NCBI GenBank assembly: GCA_002773755.1
Contig: PFAG01000014.1
Coordinates: 6,634-70,633, forward strand
Direction of reading: 5' to 3'
Length of the DNA: 64,000 nucleotides
From: Candidatus Colwellbacteria bacterium CG10_big_fil_rev_8_21_14_0_10_41_28
GTDB taxonomy: Bacteria; Patescibacteriota; Minisyncoccia; UBA6257; Colwellbacteraceae
Shown here: one piece after another, positions 5,654 through 59,617 of the stretch
How the letters are laid out: each line of letters starts with the position of its first letter
Numbering within the stretch: the first letter of the stretch is position 1
Program-made: the position numbers and the translations under genes
The notes under the pieces: generated by a model
Told to the model about the DNA's origin: nothing
What the model saw: the letters and a program-made list of their open reading frames with translations, nothing else
Databases searched by the model: none

Positions 5654-5664
5654 TATCGCTCAAC

Positions 5665-5694
5665 AAGGGGCATCAAGATCTGGTGCCCCTTTTA
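5665..5694 (+). terminator. intrinsic terminator GGGGCA..TGCCCC + TTTT
   Basis: Hairpin AAGGGGCA-TCAAGATCTGG-TGCCCCTT followed by TTTT. Confidence 0.5.
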
Positions 5695-5821
5695 CATTTT
5701 CTGGTATAATAAAAATGTTCCGCTCTTGGTACCGGATCAAATACTTTTTACGGGGATTTCTATATCATTTGGTCCCTTGGGATTAAATTGCGATCTCCCA
5801 CCTGGTTATCGCCGGGTTGCT

Positions 5822-5875
5822 AATGCGCGGAACATAAGAGAACCGCCCTTCGGGGCGGTTTTCTTATGTTTCTAA
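5822..5875. terminator. long near-perfect hairpin (18-bp stem, TTCG loop) downstream of rpmB; likely bidirectional terminator
   Basis: AACATAAGAGAACCGCCC TTCG GGGCGGTTTTCTTATGTT; U-tracts on both sides. Confidence 0.55.
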
Positions 5876-5890
5876 TCCTACTTAACCTAT

Positions 5891-6082
5891 CTAATTAACA
5901 GCCTTTTTGGCTAAAGTCTTAATACACTGTGTGCAGGCAACAATCTTCTTGCCCTCTAGGTCAGTGGTCTTTTGTAGGTTTGGATATTTTCTTACTTGTG
6001 GGGTTGGGTTGTAGTTGCCTCTCAACTTATGCCTCTTTCCAGCCATCTTTGATCCCTTGCCACAAATTGAACATTGCTTCAT
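5891..6082 (-). CDS. rpmB: 50S ribosomal protein L28
   Basis: MKQCSICGKG..RGNYNPT..PNLQK..CTQC (L28 C4 zinc-ribbon pattern); start chosen at second Met (track ORF extends to 6115). Confidence 0.7.
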   Translation of the reverse strand: MKQCSICGKGSKMAGKRHKLRGNYNPTPQVRKYPNLQKTTDLEGKKIVACTQCIKTLAKKAVN

Positions 6083-6093
6083 AGTATCCACAT

Positions 6094-23597: not shown

Positions 23598-24863
23598 GTG
23601 AAATTCATTGTAAACGGCGGGAAACAGCTCAGCGGAGAAATTGATGTGAGGGGATCTAAGAACGCAGCTACTCCAATTCTTGCTGCAACCCTATTAACAG
23701 ACAGAACTTGTGTCATAAAAAACCTTCCACTAATAGGAGATGTTTTGATAGTTATCAATATTCTAGAGGAACTAGGTGCCGACATTGAGTGGATTGATGA
23801 AAGAAGCATCAGAATCAAGAACAATGAATTTGATCCTTTTGATCTTCCTCGTGATCTTGTCCGCAAGATTAGATCATCCATTCTTTTAATAGGTCCCATC
23901 TTAGCTAGATACGGCAAGATCAAGCTTAATACACCAGGAGGTTGCCACATTGGTGTCCGACCGATGGATGCACATTTTGATGCCTTCAAAGATCTTGGCT
24001 TTAATGTTGATTACGATGAAAAAGAAGATCTATACACGGTTCAAAAAGGCGGAGAATCTCTGAAGAAGATAACTCTTAAGGAGTTCTCTGTTACGGCTAC
24101 AGAAAACCTTTTGATGTATGGAGCAATGAACCCAGGTCTTCAGATTGAAATTGCCGCAACTGAACCGCATGTCGTTGATCTCGGTAAGTTCATCTCTAAA
24201 TTAGGGGCTGAGATAGAGGGCCTTGGAACTCATGACATAAAAGTAAACAAGGGGATTGATGCAGGAGGAGGTGATGTGGAACATAATATAACCAGCGACT
24301 ACATAGAAGCAGGGACATATATTGTTCTTGCAGCAGCCACAAAGAGTAATTTGAGAATTAAGAATGTTCCAGTAGGTGATTTGGTCATACCCCTTTTAAA
24401 GTTAAGAGAGTCTAACCTTATCTATGAAATAGATGGAAAGGATGTCATTGTAAAAGGAGCCGAATCCGAATTAGTTTCTCCTGGAAAGATAATGACTCAA
24501 CCTCACCCCGGATTTCCTTCAGATCTACAGGCTCCCTTCGGAGTATTAGCGACTCAAGCTAGGGGAACCACAAAAATCTTTGACACTCTTTATGAGGGAA
24601 GATTAAAATACCTTTACGAACTTGATAAGATGGGTGCGGCTGTTGAGATACTTGGCCCACACAGGGCGATCATAAAAGGCCCTAAACATTTACACGGTAA
24701 GAATGTCGAAAGCCTTGATTTAAGAGCAGGAGCAACATTAATAATTGCTGCCCTTGTTGCCGAGGGAGAAAGCACTCTCCATGGTGTGGAACAGATAGAT
24801 AGGGGATATGAGAAGATAGAAGAGCGTCTCAGTGCGATCGGAGCAGATATTAAAAGAATATAA
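23598..24863 (+). CDS. murA: UDP-N-acetylglucosamine 1-carboxyvinyltransferase
   Basis: MurA/EPSP-synthase fold sequence; GTG start likely. Confidence 0.9.
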   Translation: MKFIVNGGKQLSGEIDVRGSKNAATPILAATLLTDRTCVIKNLPLIGDVLIVINILEELGADIEWIDERSIRIKNNEFDPFDLPRDLVRKIRSSILLIGPILARYGKIKLNTPGGCHIGVRPMDAHFDAFKDLGFNVDYDEKEDLYTVQKGGESLKKITLKEFSVTATENLLMYGAMNPGLQIEIAATEPHVVDLGKFISKLGAEIEGLGTHDIKVNKGIDAGGGDVEHNITSDYIEAGTYIVLAAATKSNLRIKNVPVGDLVIPLLKLRESNLIYEIDGKDVIVKGAESELVSPGKIMTQPHPGFPSDLQAPFGVLATQARGTTKIFDTLYEGRLKYLYELDKMGAAVEILGPHRAIIKGPKHLHGKNVESLDLRAGATLIIAALVAEGESTLHGVEQIDRGYEKIEERLSAIGADIKRI

Positions 24864-38883: not shown

Positions 38884-39290
38884 GGTGAGGTAATTCAGGC
38901 AATAGCCTTCTTTTTTTACCCGATATTGCTCTGTAACGATTGATCTTTACCTAAAGGGTAATAATAAAAGAGGGAGGAAAGTCCGGACACCTACTTGGTT
39001 TTCCAGGTTAAAAAGGTAGCGGGTAATACCCGTCGTGCGAAAGCATAGGGGTGCGAGCAGAGACGCTGCAATATCGAGAGATACGCAGGAGCCCGATCCC
39101 AACGTAGACGGCTCAACTCAGTTATAGGGATAAAAGACTGAGGTGAAACGGCTAAATCCCTACCCAGGTGCAAGGCCGAGCTCCGACATTCGGAGAGTGC
39201 CGCTAGAACTATTGAGCAATCATTAGTCCAGATAGATTATTGCCACCTTCTTCGGAAGGGACAGAATCCGGCTTATGAATTGCCTCCAAA
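38884..39290 (+). ncRNA. rnpB: RNase P RNA (bacterial type A), ends approximate
   Basis: Universal P4 motifs GAGGAAAGTCCGG.. and ..ACAGAATCCGGCTTAT; GNRA-type elements; GC-rich relative to surroundings. Confidence 0.85.
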
Positions 39291-42146: not shown

Positions 42147-42217
42147 TGCCGGATGGTGTAATGGTAGCACGCCAGGTTCTGGCCCTGGAAATTGGGGTTC
42201 GACTCCCTGTCCGGCAG
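42147..42217 (+). tRNA. tRNA-Gln (anticodon CTG)
   Basis: Cloverleaf: acceptor TGCCGGA/TCCGGCA (U1-A72), anticodon loop TTCTGGC, T-loop TTCGACT, discriminator G; CCA not encoded. Confidence 0.8.
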
Positions 42218-45096: not shown

Positions 45097-45182
45097 TTTC
45101 ATCAAAGAATATAGCTAAATAAGAGAACTCCTGATATAGTTTATTGCTCATGCCTCTAGTGCATGACTTTTTTTATAAAAAC

Positions 45183-46946
45183 ATGGGAATAAGAAACATA
45201 GCCATAATCGCCCACGTTGATCATGGGAAAACAACCATAACAGACGCTCTCATGCGCCAAACTGGTGCAACCTCTGGTGAGTCAGTCAGCATGGATAGTA
45301 ATGCGCTTGAAAAAGAGCGTGGGATCACCATATATGCCAAAAATGCATCTATGTTCTATAAAGACACAAAAATCAATATCGTTGACACTCCAGGGCACGC
45401 TGATTTTGGTTCTGAGGTTGAAAGAGTTCTCAGATCAATAGATTCAGTATTGTTAGTAGTTGATGCTAGTGAGGGACCAATGCCGCAAACTAAGTTTGTT
45501 CTAAAGAAATCTCTAGATATAGGGCTAAAACCACTTGTAGTTATTAATAAGATAGACAATCCCGCAGCAAGACCTGAAGAAGTTCACGAAGAGGTGCTCG
45601 AACTCTTTATGGATCTTGGTGCGAGCGATGATCAGCTTAATTTTGAGACCGTATACACAATTGGTAAAGATGGTATAGCTAAGAAAAAGCTTGATCAGGA
45701 CTCTAAAGATATGACGCCTCTTCTTGATGCTATATTAGAAAATATCGAACCAGCTCCATCAGAATCGGGTAAAACCCTCTTAATGCAATCATTCAACCTA
45801 GATTATGATGACTATCTAGGTCGCCTTGCTATAGCTCGAATATACGAAGGAACCGTAAGAAGTAAGGATCAGCTATTTATTAAAAGAATAGATGGATCTG
45901 TCCAAAAAGGTACTGTTACTAAAATATTCACCTTCGAAGGCTTCACTAGAAGAGAGGTTGATTCGGCTGCGGCAGGGGATATCGTGGTAATAGCAGGTTT
46001 CCCAGGTGTATATATTGGAGACACCATGACAACGGATGAATCCGCAGAGCTTCTCCCACACATTGCCGTTGATGAACCAACCATCTCCCTAGCCTTCATG
46101 GTTAACAACTCTCCTTTCTCGGGCAGAGAAGGAAAGTTCGTCACAACCTCTCAGATAAAAGAAAGATTAGAAAAAGAGTTAGAAGTTAATGTTGGTATCA
46201 AAATAGATTTTTCTCAATCAGATCAATATACGGTATATGGTCGTGGAGAAATGCATATAGCCATTCTCCTTGAGAATATGCGTAGAGAAGGATATGAGCT
46301 TCAAGTCTCTCAACCGCACGTAATTCTAAAAGAAGAAGATGGAAAAACTCTTGAGCCATTTGAGGAGTTGATAGTAGATGTCCCCGAAGAACTCACAGGA
46401 ACTGTAATTAAAAAGGTTTCTCAAAGAAAAGGTGTGCTAGCAGAAATAAAGAAGCTTCAAGTCGAATCTAGACTAATATTTGAAATCCCAACCAGAGGTC
46501 TTTTAGGTTTCCGCTCAGAACTATTAATAGATACACGCGGTGAAGGAGTAGCCTCATCAAGAGTAATGGGCTTCAAACCGCACGTGGGTGAAATCAACCG
46601 TCACGAAGTCGGTTCAATGGTATCGATGGCAACCGGCAAATCTTTGGGGTATTCGTTATTTAATCTTCAAAACAGAGGAATTTTATACATAGGACCAAAC
46701 ACAGAGGTCTATGAGGGTATGGTTATAGGAAATGTTAGTAAGGGAATAGATATGGCTGTTAATCCAACCAAAGGAAAACAGTTAACCAACATGAGGGCTT
46801 CTGGAAGTGATGATGCATTAATCCTGACACCACCATTAAAGTTAACCCTAGAAAGAGGATTAGAGATAATTGCAGACGATGAGCTCCTAGAAATAACTCC
46901 TCAGGCAATAAGATTGAGAAAAAAGGTACTAAAACAAAGGGTTTAG
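45183..46946 (+). CDS. typA: translational GTPase TypA/BipA
   Basis: [24 protein letters not shown]; EF-G-like domains. Confidence 0.9.
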
Positions 46947-46952
46947 AAACCC

Positions 46953-47060
46953 TTGACATATATATAGCAGTTGCTATAATACACTCGTTCATTAAAGACT
47001 CCGGTCTTTGATGGACATATGAAGAAATCGCCTCCGGGCGATTTTTTCACGTCTATAGAT
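46953..47060 (+). repeat. 108-bp module copy 1: consensus promoter (TTGACA-16-TATAAT) + ~60-nt hairpin RNA + intrinsic terminator
   Basis: 103/108 identical to 48715..48822; -35 46953-58, -10 46975-80, terminator AATCGCC-TCCGG-GCGATT + T6 ending 47047. Confidence 0.75.
46987..47048 (+). ncRNA. candidate small RNA (copy 1) with two stem-loops exposing CUCCGG / CCUCCGGG
   Basis: Predicted from promoter and terminator; hairpin 1 AAAGAC-UCCG-GUCUUU, hairpin 2 is the terminator. Confidence 0.45.
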
Positions 47061-47068
47061 CTCAGTTT

Positions 47069-47965
47069 CTAATCGAAGATACTAATTAGGTATTCATCTA
47101 TACCCCTTTGGCTCATATCATAAAACCCGATCCCTTGTTTGTGTAATTCCTTAGCAAGCTCTACTCCGACAAACCTCCAATGCCAGGGTTCGAATATGTA
47201 ATAGCTGTTGTCCTCTGAGTAGGATAGGACAAAGCCGTATTTATAAGCATTCTCTTGTAGCCATTGGTAGGCTTCTGTATCTCCAAATCCATTTAGACCT
47301 CCTCCCAAATTCTTAGTTGTGAAATCAATAGTTGTTCCAAGTTGGTGCTCTGAATATCCCTGATCAGCAGAGAAGGCATTGGCGCCACTGCCATATGTAA
47401 TTGAGTAACCCGACTTAAGTGCTCCTTGAGTGCCATATGATCTATATGCAGAAACTATCCACAAAGTAACCCCATCGTCAGCAGCATCTTTTATCACATC
47501 CTCTAAATAGGGAAGCACCTTAGCATGAACCTCTTTGGGCTTACTTTCATCATATAAATAGGTGAGGGGAATATTATCTAAATCTTCTGGTACGTAATGT
47601 TCATTCAAGAAATAAATCTTAGAATATTTCTGAAGAAGTTCTTCGTCTGTTTTGCTAAGCTTATCTAATATAAAAACTTGACCTGCGATATCTTCGAACT
47701 GGTTCCTAAGTTGGCCAACATATTCCTCCTTATCATTCAACTCTGCAGAAAGGTTTTCTTTCTCTTCTTTGGTTGTCTCTAGATTCTCAGTAGTTATACC
47801 AAGTTCGTCCTCTAGTTTAGCAACCCTGCTTCTTAAAGAGTCATTTTGAGTATCTAAATCAACATATTGGTAATATCCAAAACCAATAAAACCAAGCAAT
47901 ATGACTATCACTCCAATTAAGATTCCCATAGGAATAAACCTCTTTAGATTCTTAATATCTTTCAT
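47069..47965 (-). CDS. M15B (VanY-like) D-Ala-D-Ala carboxypeptidase, membrane-anchored
   Basis: SAYRSY..SEHQLGTTIDF VanY-type motifs; N-terminal TM + coiled coil; start placed at internal Met (track ORF extends to 48076). Confidence 0.65.
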   Translation of the reverse strand: MKDIKNLKRFIPMGILIGVIVILLGFIGFGYYQYVDLDTQNDSLRSRVAKLEDELGITTENLETTKEEKENLSAELNDKEEYVGQLRNQFEDIAGQVFILDKLSKTDEELLQKYSKIYFLNEHYVPEDLDNIPLTYLYDESKPKEVHAKVLPYLEDVIKDAADDGVTLWIVSAYRSYGTQGALKSGYSITYGSGANAFSADQGYSEHQLGTTIDFTTKNLGGGLNGFGDTEAYQWLQENAYKYGFVLSYSEDNSYYIFEPWHWRFVGVELAKELHKQGIGFYDMSQRGIDEYLISIFD

Positions 47966-48041
47966 CAACCAAATTCTATCACAAACAGTTGTATAGATAA
48001 TATTTTGTATAAGAACACGCACTCCCTTATAATAAAGACAG

Positions 48042-48431
48042 ATGAAGGGATATATAGACAATATAGAAAAAGTCACTAAGGAAAATAACGCGTATAGAAA
48101 AGTTCTATATACGGGTAGATACAGTCAGCTAGTTGTAATGAGTCTTAAGCCAGGAGAAGAAATTGGTAATGAGGTTCATGGCCTAGACCAATTTATACGA
48201 ATAGAGCAGGGGACTGCTAAAGTAATTTTTAACAATAAAGATGAGCATGAAGTATCGGATGACTGGGCGATAGTTATTCCAGCCACAACCTGGCATAACG
48301 TAATTAATATTGGTGATAATGATTTAAAGCTCTATTCAATCTACTCACCCCCAGAGCATAAAGAAGGGACTGTTCACGAGAACAAAGAAGATGAACAAGA
48401 GGAGCACTTCGACGGAGAAACTACAGAATAG
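48042..48431 (+). CDS. cupin domain protein
   Basis: Cupin motifs G(X)5HXH-like (GNEVHGLDQFIRIEQG..), acidic tail. Confidence 0.55.
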   Translation: MKGYIDNIEKVTKENNAYRKVLYTGRYSQLVVMSLKPGEEIGNEVHGLDQFIRIEQGTAKVIFNNKDEHEVSDDWAIVIPATTWHNVINIGDNDLKLYSIYSPPEHKEGTVHENKEDEQEEHFDGETTE

Positions 48432-48436
48432 CTAAA

Positions 48437-48718
48437 ATGATGAAATTCTTATGGGTTTTAGTTGGATCGCTAATGCTCATCGTCATGGGCCTATATCTCA
48501 TGCCCTCAAAAACATCCGCTCCAGTAACTCCATATATGGACTTTGATTTTGGAAGTAAGATTGTATATACAACCGATCTCCAAACACCAAAAGAAGCTCT
48601 TATAGAACATTGCGACTTGAGAGGAGGAGTATTTAATGAGTGTGGCAGTATATGTGAGCCGGATGTATTTACTTGCGCCTCAGTATGCGCCTATACATGC
48701 GAGGGAATAGGGGGTTGA
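48437..48718 (+). CDS. small secreted/membrane-anchored Cys-rich protein (93 aa, 6 Cys in last 40 aa)
   Basis: N-terminal hydrophobic segment, C-terminal CxxxC-rich region; stop codon TGA lies inside the -35 of repeat copy 2. Confidence 0.45.
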   Translation: MMKFLWVLVGSLMLIVMGLYLMPSKTSAPVTPYMDFDFGSKIVYTTDLQTPKEALIEHCDLRGGVFNECGSICEPDVFTCASVCAYTCEGIGG

Positions 48719-48822
48719 CATATATATAATAATTGCTATAATATACTCGTTCATTAAAGACTCCGGTTTTTGATGGACATATGAAGAAATCGCCTCCGGG
48801 CGATTTTTTCACGTCTATAGAT
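48715..48822 (+). repeat. 108-bp module copy 2 (promoter + small RNA + terminator)
   Basis: Same architecture as 46953..47060; differences confined to promoter spacer, TSS region and one stem position (C->U keeps G-U pair). Confidence 0.75.
48749..48810 (+). ncRNA. candidate small RNA (copy 2)
   Basis: As copy 1. Confidence 0.45.
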
Positions 48823-48849
48823 TTATAAAACACATAGCCAAACGTGATT

Positions 48850-48885
48850 CAGCCCTGCTAATAGATTTCTCTAGAAGCAGGGCTG
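48850..48885. other. 10-bp perfect hairpin CAGCCCTGCT..AGCAGGGCTG with GATTTCT in loop, 24 nt downstream of minus-strand small ORF
   Basis: Inverted repeat seen directly; loop shares GATTTCT with hairpin at 38453..38484. Confidence 0.4.
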
Positions 48886-48911
48886 TTAGGTTGATGGCTC
48901 ATTCTCTTTGG

Positions 48912-49022
48912 TCACCTGCTACTGATCCTCTCGTAGAGGTATGCGATGGCAACTACTGCCAAGAGCAGAGTCAGCCCAGTCGCATACGAGGCCGGTGGTC
49001 TGGTCGCCAGAGTGAAGAACAT
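48912..49022 (-). CDS. 36-aa small membrane peptide (MFFTLATRPPASYATGLTLLLAVVAIAYLYERISSR)
   Basis: GGAGGAG 4-6 nt upstream of ATG; TM helix + charged tail; antisense to a weaker plus-strand ORF from the track. Confidence 0.35.
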   Translation of the reverse strand: MFFTLATRPPASYATGLTLLLAVVAIAYLYERISSR

Positions 49023-49167
49023 CAGACTCCTCCGATTGTACTGGACATGGGGCTTCCTACTCCCCATCTTAATTTGAAAATACAATTAATTAATACGTTA
49101 GTCAAAAAGAAAAAGTGGATGATATAATTTTCATATGGATGAAGTAGATTTTAAGAATAAGAAATAG

Positions 49168-50280
49168 ATGGATAGAAAGGACTTAATTCAAATAGCAGTA
49201 ATAGTTGGTGTAGCCATACTAGTTACAGTAGGTGTGGTTTCGTTCGTAGCTCTTAGTCAAAAAGAATCAACACCAATCAATCCTATTAATATTGGCTCGC
49301 AATCGAAAGCTGACCTATACACCCCAGCGATAGATATATCTTCACCGGATGGATTCATTAATACTGATCCAATTAACATAAGTGATCTAGTAGCCGACAG
49401 CAAAGTTGTTCTACTCGATATATGGACATACTCCTGCATCAACTGCCAGAGAACTCTTCCATATCTTAATGCTTGGCATGAAGAATATGCTGATGACGGA
49501 TTGGTAATAATAGGTCTTCACACACCTGAATTTGAATTTGAAAAAGATATAGCGAATGTTAGAAGGGCTGTAGAAAAATATGGTATAGAATATCCAGTTG
49601 TCCTAGACAACGACTATTCAACATGGAATGCATATGGAAATAGATATTGGCCACGTAAATATCTAATCGATATAGATGGATACGTTGTATATGATCACAT
49701 AGGAGAAGGGGGTTACGAAGAAACAGAAAAGGCCATCCAAGCTGCTCTAGCAGAAAGAGCCAAGAGATTAGGAGAGGAACTGGATGAAATGAGTGGAGCT
49801 AAGGTAGAAAATGCAGAAACAGTTGATCCAAGAACAGTTAAGACTCCAGAAACATATATTGGATACTTAAGAGTAAGTAACATGGCTAATCTTCCATCAG
49901 AAGAGTGCTTTGATTCAAGCTGTCAGCTCGATGCTCCAGATAGACTATCTCTCAATGATTTTGCTCTGGATGGTGTTTGGAAAATAGGTTCGGAGGGAGC
50001 AACCCTAGAAAGCACTACGGGTTCAATATTTATTAAGTTCTCGGCCAATAAGGCAAATCTAGTACTAACATCAGAAACATCTGTTCTGGGCCAAATCTAT
50101 TTAGATGGAGAATTAGTGGGCGAAGCTAGTAGTGGTTCAGACGTAGTGTCTGGAACAATTAAGGTAATGGATAATGATCTATATAATCTCATAGACCTAA
50201 GAGGGGAGCCTGGAGAACATCTTCTTGAGATCAGATTTCTTGAACCTGGAGTCTCAGCCTTTGCCTTTACTTTCGGATAA
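49168..50280 (+). CDS. membrane-anchored thioredoxin-fold (TlpA/redoxin family) protein with extra C-terminal domain
   Basis: N-terminal TM; redoxin region with CxxC (SCINCQ); ~170-aa C-terminal beta-rich domain of unknown function. Confidence 0.7.
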   Translation: MDRKDLIQIAVIVGVAILVTVGVVSFVALSQKESTPINPINIGSQSKADLYTPAIDISSPDGFINTDPINISDLVADSKVVLLDIWTYSCINCQRTLPYLNAWHEEYADDGLVIIGLHTPEFEFEKDIANVRRAVEKYGIEYPVVLDNDYSTWNAYGNRYWPRKYLIDIDGYVVYDHIGEGGYEETEKAIQAALAERAKRLGEELDEMSGAKVENAETVDPRTVKTPETYIGYLRVSNMANLPSEECFDSSCQLDAPDRLSLNDFALDGVWKIGSEGATLESTTGSIFIKFSANKANLVLTSETSVLGQIYLDGELVGEASSGSDVVSGTIKVMDNDLYNLIDLRGEPGEHLLEIRFLEPGVSAFAFTFG

Positions 50281-59542: not shown

Positions 59543-59617
59543 TGGGGATGACAGGATTTGAACCTGCGACCTCTGGCTTGAGAGGCCAGCGTGCACTCCA
59601 AACTGCACTACACCCCC
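59543..59617 (-). tRNA. tRNA-Glu (anticodon CTC)
   Basis: Minus-strand cloverleaf GGGGGTG..CATCCCC acceptor, anticodon loop CTCTCAA, T-loop TTCAAAT, discriminator A. Confidence 0.75.

Follow-up and report, generated by a model that had tools for sequence, protein, structure and literature searches.

We analysed a 64,000-nucleotide (nt) stretch of the genome of Candidatus Colwellbacteria bacterium CG10_big_fil_rev_8_21_14_0_10_41_28, an uncultured groundwater bacterium of the Paceibacteria within the candidate phyla radiation (CPR); we refer to this stretch as the window (assembly GCA_002773755.1, contig PFAG01000014.1, positions 6,634 to 70,633). Within it, two nearly identical 108-nt sequences flank three genes: a minus-strand gene encoding a peptidoglycan carboxypeptidase and plus-strand genes encoding a small cupin and a Cys-rich protein, with typA to the left and the gene for a TlpA-like oxidoreductase to the right (Table 1). 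The initial annotation of this DNA had described the twin copies and the genes that they bracket, and we confirm both the repeat and all three open reading frames (ORFs). We find that the bracketed genes look like ordinary native chromosome and not like a mobile unit, and that each repeat copy has the predicted anatomy of a complete small-RNA gene, from promoter to terminator.

The two copies start 1762 nt apart, differ at five positions (95% identity) and form the sole repeat of at least 40 nt within the window; a 23-mer taken from the repeat occurs twice, versus 0.00 occurrences expected. Similarity ends abruptly at the left and right edges. The longest uninterrupted identity between the copies is 55 nt, or 79 nt with a T variant of copy 1 that is present in the population. 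Contigs of the same species were recovered by exact-protein look-up from eight read sets (ERZ27293400, ERZ27293412, ERZ27293414 and ERZ27293386; Joint Genome Institute (JGI) 3300004208, 3300004209 and 3300004210; SRR6240789). In ERZ27293400 the window lies on a 116.7-kb metagenome contig, k141_982717. Exact look-ups of TypA and of the Cys-rich protein brought up no record of an independent NCBI assembly of the species. One of these, L004, comes from another sample (ERZ27293414) and covers both copies and the three genes in unchanged order, and the duplication is therefore not an artefact of assembly.

Table 1. Features in and around the repeat pair, in window coordinates
Feature	Position	Strand	Evidence or remark
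typA/bipA translational GTPase, left flank	45144..46946	+	Pfam GTP_EFTU 7e-52, BipA_C 4.5e-42; 100% identical to TypA of Ca. Colwellbacteria bacterium CG10_big_fil_rev
Terminator-like hairpin, AAGGGTTTCTAAACCCTT then TGTTTTAG	46937..46954	-	terminator scan, minus-strand fold
Repeat copy 1, putative complete small-RNA gene	46953..47060	+	repeat comparison, promoter scan, fold
Copy 1, -35 box TTGACA	46953-46958	+	
Copy 1, extended -10 element TGCTATAAT	46972-46980	+	
Copy 1, hairpin 1	46987-47016	+	
Copy 1, hairpin 2 (predicted terminator)	47020-47049	+	followed by U-run, 10 more nt
VanY/LdcB-type (LAS, M15B) peptidoglycan carboxypeptidase, membrane-anchored, 298 aa	47069..47965	-	Pfam VanY 9.2e-30
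Promoter-like TTGTAT-17-TATAAT	48005..48033	+	read from sequence, inference only
Small cupin, 129 aa	48042..48431	+	Pfam Cupin_2 2.1e-13
Cys-rich protein, 93 aa, N-terminal membrane helix and ~60-aa extracytoplasmic domain	48437..48718	+	
Repeat copy 2, same putative small-RNA gene	48715..48822	+	repeat comparison, promoter scan, fold
Copy 2, -35 box	48715-48720	+	
Copy 2, -10 box	48737-48742	+	
Copy 2, hairpins	48749-48778, 48782-48811	+	
GC-rich structured spacer between copy 2 and TlpA-like gene, 345 nt	48823..49167	.	
Strong hairpin in spacer	48850-48886	-	
Rod-like ~135-nt fold in spacer	48890-49025	+	z -4.4
36-aa hydrophobic ORF (MFFTLATRPPASYATGLTLLLAVVAIAYLYERISSR)	49022 down to 48912	-	GGAGGA 5 nt upstream
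Promoter-like site before 36-aa ORF	49105-49077	-	
TlpA-like membrane-anchored thiol:disulfide oxidoreductase, CINC motif, right flank	49168..50280	+	Pfam Thioredoxin_10 (C-terminal) 4.2e-31, AhpC-TSA 3.7e-12, Redoxin 5.4e-12

Anatomy of the repeat unit

The first bases of each copy are a TTGACA box, which is followed by a 16-nt spacer and the extended -10 element TGCTATAAT. Both promoters match the consensus at 12 of 12 positions, carry the TG of the extended -10, and are the only perfect TTGACA-N16-18-TATAAT sites in the 64 kb, where 0.05 would be expected. In copy 2, the TGA stop codon of the Cys-rich ORF (48716-48718) falls within the -35 box, as had been stated earlier. Beginning approximately 7 nt downstream of the -10 box are two successive 13-bp helices with UCCG tetraloops, the second of which leads into a U-tract in both copies and, together with it, constitutes a predicted intrinsic terminator. 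The RNA predicted from each copy would be approximately 63 nt long, nearly all of it in the two helices.

Folding of the unit is strongly strand-dependent. On the plus strand, copy 1 folds with -36.9 kcal/mol (z -9.1) and copy 2 with -34.3 kcal/mol (z -8.4); the minus strand folds much less stably (-22.6 and -16.2 kcal/mol, with z-scores of -3.5 and -1.5), since what are G-U pairs on the plus strand are A-C mismatches there. This strand specificity favours a plus-strand RNA, and we read the unit as a gene for such an RNA and not as a DNA palindrome. One of the differences between the copies falls in the stem of hairpin 1, where a G-C pair in copy 1 is a G-U pair in copy 2 and pairing is retained; another is at the start site, and the remaining three are within the promoter spacer. 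Two other functions for the unit were considered and rejected. A small ORF inside the RNA (MKKSPPGDFFTSIDL...) lacks a ribosome-binding site, and the terminator comes before its stop codon. As for an attenuator, inspection shows that the 3' arm of hairpin 1 and the 5' arm of hairpin 2 could form approximately 5 bp, which cannot compete with the 13-bp stems.

The RNA had no family match in Rfam at the gathering threshold, nor any beyond chance level at E<=10, where the matches were to RNAI (E 0.35) and STnc130 (E 0.73). Searches with blastn, nhmmer and a covariance model over 915 kb of relatives' loci, which represent 2-3% of each relative's genome, returned no homologue, and the covariance model found just the two copies in the window and these loci together. 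A two-anchor pattern scan of metagenome and viral collections gave 0 matches; the metagenome set evidently lacks the JGI samples that carry the organism, and that negative is therefore weak. Perfect promoters do occur in other CPR loci, and the sequences downstream of them are unrelated to the RNA.

Elsewhere in the window, the sole matches above the Rfam threshold were to RNase P RNA of bacterial class A (120.6 bits) and to two transfer RNA (tRNA) genes, at 38887-39290, 42147-42217 and 59543-59617. In a 440-nt intergenic region (5654-6093), a UUCG tetraloop caps a 20-bp hairpin at 5829-5872, at which a further non-coding RNA may end. This hairpin is the only stem of at least 10 bp with a UNCG loop in the window beside the four of the repeat (an 8-bp stem with such a loop lies at 23860), and the covariance model of the small RNA matched it weakly (E 0.12).

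The closest known kind of system is the sibling small-RNA pair. The siblings PrrF1/PrrF2, OmrA/OmrB and AbcR1/2 are thought to stem from gene duplication, and known arrangements are tandem, distal or parted by inserted DNA (PMC4211561). The two copies described here are similarly near-identical and close together, each with its own predicted promoter and intrinsic terminator. Unlike the known siblings, the RNA has no Rfam family, is nearly all double-stranded with no obvious seed, and is known from one uncultured CPR species in which three genes part the copies. A predicted double-hairpin RNA gene that is duplicated and strongly promoted in a CPR bacterium is previously undescribed, a novelty that we regard as modest.

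The enclosed genes and their surroundings

The minus-strand gene encodes an M15B carboxypeptidase, in agreement with the initial annotation. Its product covers positions 3-131 of the 132 of the VanY profile and resembles the LdcB/VanY LAS family (MEROPS M15B) in this domain (129 of 132 positions), in the metal-site motifs SxHxxGxxxD and ExxH, present in the translation as SEHQLGTTID and EPWH (H-x6-D, E-x-x-H), and in its N-terminal membrane anchor; it differs in the coiled coil that links the anchor to the domain. With the start at 48022 that some gene callers choose instead, the product has 317 amino acids. We retrieved 7429 homologues, the best non-self matches being 55-65% identical, 283-307 amino acids long and from Paceibacteria. 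Hundreds of homologues at this level of identity share the same architecture and occur in Kaiser-, Campbell-, Wolfe- and Zambryskibacteria and other Paceibacteria. Given that TypA of the nearest relatives is 83-89% identical, this spread looks like vertical inheritance.

The cupin, whose assignment in the earlier annotation was likewise correct, has homologues of 49-55% identity in other Paceibacteria loci and one of 74% in a co-occurring organism (L079, 2469-2852; JGI 3300004210). Contig L079 also carries a gene with the Cys-rich domain 3 kb downstream of its cupin, and otherwise has no synteny to the window. The promoter-like sequence upstream of the window cupin stops 8 nt before the ATG, with no Shine-Dalgarno sequence between, and the predicted transcript may thus be leaderless or near-leaderless. 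Since the Cys-rich ORF begins 5 nt past the cupin stop codon, the two probably form one operon. This operon is not a conserved one, in that a cupin was present at one of ten Cys-rich metagenome loci, and there 3 kb away.

The third gene had been described as encoding a 93-amino-acid, Cys-rich, secreted peptide. The ORF and its six Cys are present, and the hydrophobic N-terminal helix makes it more likely that the product is membrane-anchored than freely secreted. No Pfam model matches it, and the domain is nevertheless widespread, with 399 clusters at E<=1e-3 and the conserved motif KIVYT..C..RGGxFNECG..VCAYTC. Members of the family (proteins P0244-P0392 and the window ORF) are either stand-alone membrane-anchored proteins of approximately 90-110 amino acids or larger proteins in which the domain is fused, and sometimes repeated. 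Its fusion partners include SLH, Gmad2 and GerMN, which identifies it as a cell-envelope domain. A functional link with redoxins, considered on account of a Giovannonibacteria homologue, was dropped, the neighbouring redoxin being of the cytoplasmic peroxiredoxin type.

Homologues of the TlpA-like protein (Thioredoxin_10), at approximately 38-50% identity, are found in metagenome-assembled genomes (MAGs) of DPANN archaea as well as in CPR bacteria. The archaeal MAGs (loci L011, L018, L038, L043, L045, L048, L050 and L058) belong to Nanoarchaeia, Micrarchaeota, Aenigmatarchaeota, Woesearchaeota and AR5. This distribution suggests either cross-domain exchange among small-celled symbionts or binning errors.

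Evidence for resident genes and the probable history of the interval

Several lines of evidence indicate that the interval between the copies is resident DNA. Its GC content is 0.381, compared to 0.399+/-0.017 for windows of the same size (the genome as a whole has approximately 40%), its tetranucleotide distance lies at the 71st percentile, and its GC content at third codon positions is 0.338 versus 0.332+/-0.031. The peptidase has a codon fit of 0.754 and the cupin one of 0.745, compared to 0.733+/-0.025 among 40 long ORFs. The 10 kb on each side contain housekeeping or envelope genes only, and none for an integrase, a transposase or another mobility function. Among the contigs of the eight read sets, positions 47061-48714 are 100% identical, while the flanks have a few single-nucleotide polymorphisms, and every contig but one that crosses a junction keeps the order of the window; an empty-site allele, in which typA, a single repeat and the TlpA-like gene would be joined, was not found in these contigs. 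Native composition, common homologues, the lack of mobility genes and the fixed arrangement therefore lead us to read the interval as resident, and the inserted or mobile cassette proposed in the initial annotation finds no support.

These same observations bear on a past insertion, in which a circle or fragment carrying the three genes and one RNA gene would have entered a resident RNA gene by Campbell-type integration. The anatomy would suit such an event: a complete unit stands on each side of the genes, and the circularly permuted 1762-bp unit is self-consistent, with two divergent transcription units that converge on one shared terminator module. There is also precedent for the parting of siblings, since omrA and omrB are split by an insertion element in one E. 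coli strain (PMC4211561). In the nearest relative (TypA 89% identical), neither the module nor any of the three genes is found downstream of typA. We nonetheless consider a past insertion improbable, given that composition and codon use are those of the genome, that all three are of a kind common in Paceibacteria and distributed vertically there, and that neither a recombinase gene within 10 kb nor an empty site in any sample was found. The genomic islets that reside at tRNA, transfer-messenger RNA or small-RNA genes between attL and attR are similar in that a block is bounded by direct repeats coinciding with an RNA gene. They differ from this locus, where there is no integrase within 10 kb, composition is native, no empty site was seen, and the repeat is a whole gene with its promoter rather than a 3' fragment.

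Synteny cannot decide the matter, because gene order differs on both sides of typA in the nearest relatives. In the nearest by TypA in the collections (L061, 89%; L062/L063, 83%), a DEAD-box helicase gene lies upstream of typA and unrelated genes lie downstream; the breaks are thus not confined to the bracketed genes, which also counts against an insertion. TlpA-like homologues in GTDB species genomes are at most approximately 50% identical, in neighbourhoods that are not conserved, and the closest peptidase homologues (64%) sit in unrelated contexts. Peptidase or cupin genes were located 1-6 kb from TlpA-like genes in 6 of 50 distant loci (L012, L015, L016, L028, L029 and L059), including the orders TlpA-cupin-x-peptidase (L029) and def-fmt-peptidase...TlpA (L059). 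At a frequency only modestly above chance, such proximity weakly suggests an ancient neighbourhood, and is to that extent a further point against insertion.

Could RecA-type recombination nevertheless excise the 1762-bp unit, or amplify it in tandem, in some members of the population? The 55-79 nt of exact identity make the earlier suggestion that the repeats are a substrate for recombination a reasonable one, and two observations bear on the question. At 47006 (offset 54), copy 1 exists in two states, with C in the window and L004 and T, the state of copy 2, in L066 (megahit k141, ERZ27293412) and L008 (JGI 3300004209). We take the T to be a real allele, since it is joined in one k-mer-sized stretch to upstream bases specific to copy 1 and to the peptidase-side flank. 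With it, one pair of hairpin 1 is G-U instead of G-C. The allele may reflect exchange of sequence between the copies, being compatible with either a short gene-conversion tract or an ancestral polymorphism.

The second observation is contig L002 (JGI 3300004208, 1603 bp), the one exception to the common order, in which the 3' end of the Cys-rich ORF, a full repeat of the copy 2 type and the peptidase-side flank follow one another, both sides being 100% identical to the window. This is exactly the junction of a circle or tandem duplication, and an assembler mis-join over 55-79 nt explains it equally well. L002 is one short contig, and its end at 48391 lies 1 nt from the end of L066 (48392), in the 3' end of the cupin gene, while L066 has the normal junction of typA, copy 1 and peptidase gene. 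Such near-identical ends suggest a common set of reads that has a gap in coverage, or a branch of the assembly graph at 48392-48550. Contigs of other samples simply break within the repeat, L008 forms a 1762-bp cycle whose ends overlap by 60 nt, and the reciprocal deletion allele was not found in any sample. The check for circular and deletion forms that had been proposed with the cassette thus yields one circle-type contig of ambiguous origin and no deletion allele, and we regard ongoing excision or amplification as quite unlikely. More generally, circular-looking contigs at this locus are readily explained as an effect of the 55-79 nt exact repeat on short-read assemblies. As an unrelated assembly contaminant, positions 1-13 of contig L010, obtained from the European Nucleotide Archive, are Illumina adapter sequence (GCTCTTCCGATCT).

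Predicted convergent transcription and the proposed role of the pair

We propose, with somewhat better than even confidence, that the two copies are sibling small-RNA genes whose hairpins also terminate neighbouring transcripts and whose RNAs may act as antisense partners at the 3' ends of convergent envelope-gene transcripts. The pair would have arisen through duplication of the 108-nt promoter-to-terminator unit, and its likeness would be kept by selection on the RNA and, presumably, occasional gene conversion. Each copy would transcribe its approximately 63-nt RNA from the consensus sigma-70 promoter and would occupy the gap between two convergent units, namely typA and the peptidase gene at copy 1, and the cupin/Cys-rich genes and the minus-strand ORF of the spacer at copy 2. 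Convergence at copy 2 is presumed, as the 36-amino-acid ORF there has a poor codon fit and no homologue.

Two consequences would follow for the neighbouring transcripts. First, the hairpins of each copy may stop the plus-strand unit to the left. The stop codon of typA lies 6 nt upstream of copy 1 with no U-tailed terminator of its own, and the Cys-rich ORF ends in copy 2, which makes the hairpins the obvious stop signals for both. Second, the minus-strand transcript to the right of each copy may have a 3' end to which the RNA is antisense. That copy 1 points antisense toward the 3' end of the peptidase gene had been pointed out before and holds: the stop codon (47069-47071) begins 9 nt past the end of the repeat. 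In reverse, hairpin 2 of copy 1 is a weak minus-strand terminator, and the only good one lies beyond copy 1, at 46954-46937, where it overlaps the stop codon of typA and the first 2 nt of the repeat. This hairpin is the best candidate for the end of the peptidase transcript; were the transcript to end there, its 3' end would be fully complementary to the small RNA. The peptidase, the cupin and the Cys-rich protein would, together with the TlpA-like oxidoreductase, make up a cell-envelope neighbourhood.

A number of points weigh against this proposal. The RNA, its ends and the antisense overlap are predictions. No homologue was found outside the species in Rfam, related loci or pattern scans, and the case for structural conservation therefore comes down to one compensated position. 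We know of no mechanism that readily copies an exact promoter-to-terminator unit to a site 1.76 kb away, and the edges of the repeat carry no target-site duplication, terminal inverted repeat or microhomology. As the collections contain no genome closer than 89% in TypA, an insertion origin of the interval keeps a small probability. Lastly, hardly any of the RNA would be single-stranded, and its 4-nt loops are rigid; both features are atypical of a regulator that acts by base pairing, and they make classical seed pairing unlikely. It is more plausible that the RNA pairs with a convergent transcript to which it is fully complementary, or that a protein binds its helices.

A bolder version of the proposal is that the pair represents a new class of small RNA, a strong, constitutive double hairpin of approximately 63 nt that has no seed and acts, both in cis and in trans, where convergent envelope-gene transcripts end, namely those of the LdcB-like peptidase and of a small membrane peptide. 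We think this unlikely. If true, formation of RNase III substrates would be a possible mode of action, the bracketed genes would be targets and not a cassette, and the repeats would permit occasional gain or loss of the 1.76-kb unit, as L002 may show.

A further possibility concerns the spacer to the right of copy 2, a local compositional outlier (GC content 0.44-0.52, compared to 0.40 for the genome) with two long ORFs of poor codon fit (0.57 and 0.48) and no Rfam match in 48823-49167. The spacer could be a structured RNA of no Rfam family or a type I toxin-like gene. Type I toxin-antitoxin pairs with 3'-overlapping antisense RNAs include txpA/RatA and bsrG/SR4. By analogy, copy 2 would act as antitoxin on the convergent 36-amino-acid ORF through overlap of the 3' ends, and copy 1 would act likewise on the peptidase mRNA. 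As in those systems, a strongly promoted small RNA converges on the 3' end of a gene, with a hydrophobic ORF opposite copy 2; the ORF has a GGAGGA and a promoter-like site upstream and lies in a highly structured region, both RNA copies converge on a minus-strand unit, and the promoter is as strong as that of an antitoxin would be. Against the analogy, RatA and SR4 are much longer than the RNA of the repeat, the overlap is only predicted, and neither homology nor codon use supports the candidate toxin (no homologue or Pfam match; codon fit 0.48). Moreover, approximately 100 nt and a strong hairpin lie between the stop codon of the ORF and the end of the small RNA, which leaves the overlap uncertain, UNCG-type 4-nt loops are poor for kissing contacts, and the plus strand of the ORF region folds even better. 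A type I reading of copy 2 and the ORF is therefore possible but weak, and in our view has a small chance of being right.

It is also doubtful that the 108-nt unit belongs to a genome-wide family of promoter-plus-hairpin repeats, with an effect like that of Correia, repetitive extragenic palindromic (REP) or bacterial interspersed mosaic elements (BIMEs). The unit is compact and intergenic and combines a promoter with terminators, and our scan covered 64 kb of the genome. Those 64 kb hold two copies, 1.76 kb apart, without the terminal inverted repeats or target-site duplications of miniature inverted-repeat transposable elements (MITEs) and REP-type elements; the structure is specific to one RNA strand, and there was no match in 915 kb of related loci, the metagenome subset or viral contigs. 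The anatomy of the repeat likewise led us to reject a MITE, an array of the clustered regularly interspaced short palindromic repeat (CRISPR) type and an integron. Cassettes with attC sites share with this locus genes bounded by repeats of approximately 100 nt that can fold into hairpins. They differ in having a single imperfect stem with extrahelical bases instead of two perfect hairpins and a promoter, promoterless co-oriented ORFs instead of three divergently arranged genes under promoters of their own, and an IntI with an attI/Pc platform, of which there is none within 10 kb of the block.

Altogether, the value of these findings is mainly corrective, in that the locus should not count as a mobile cassette. 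CPR cells have tiny genomes and few transcription factors and, to our knowledge, their regulatory RNAs are almost unexplored. A duplicated, very strongly promoted and structured putative RNA beside genes for peptidoglycan remodelling and disulfide handling is therefore a candidate for metatranscriptome work.

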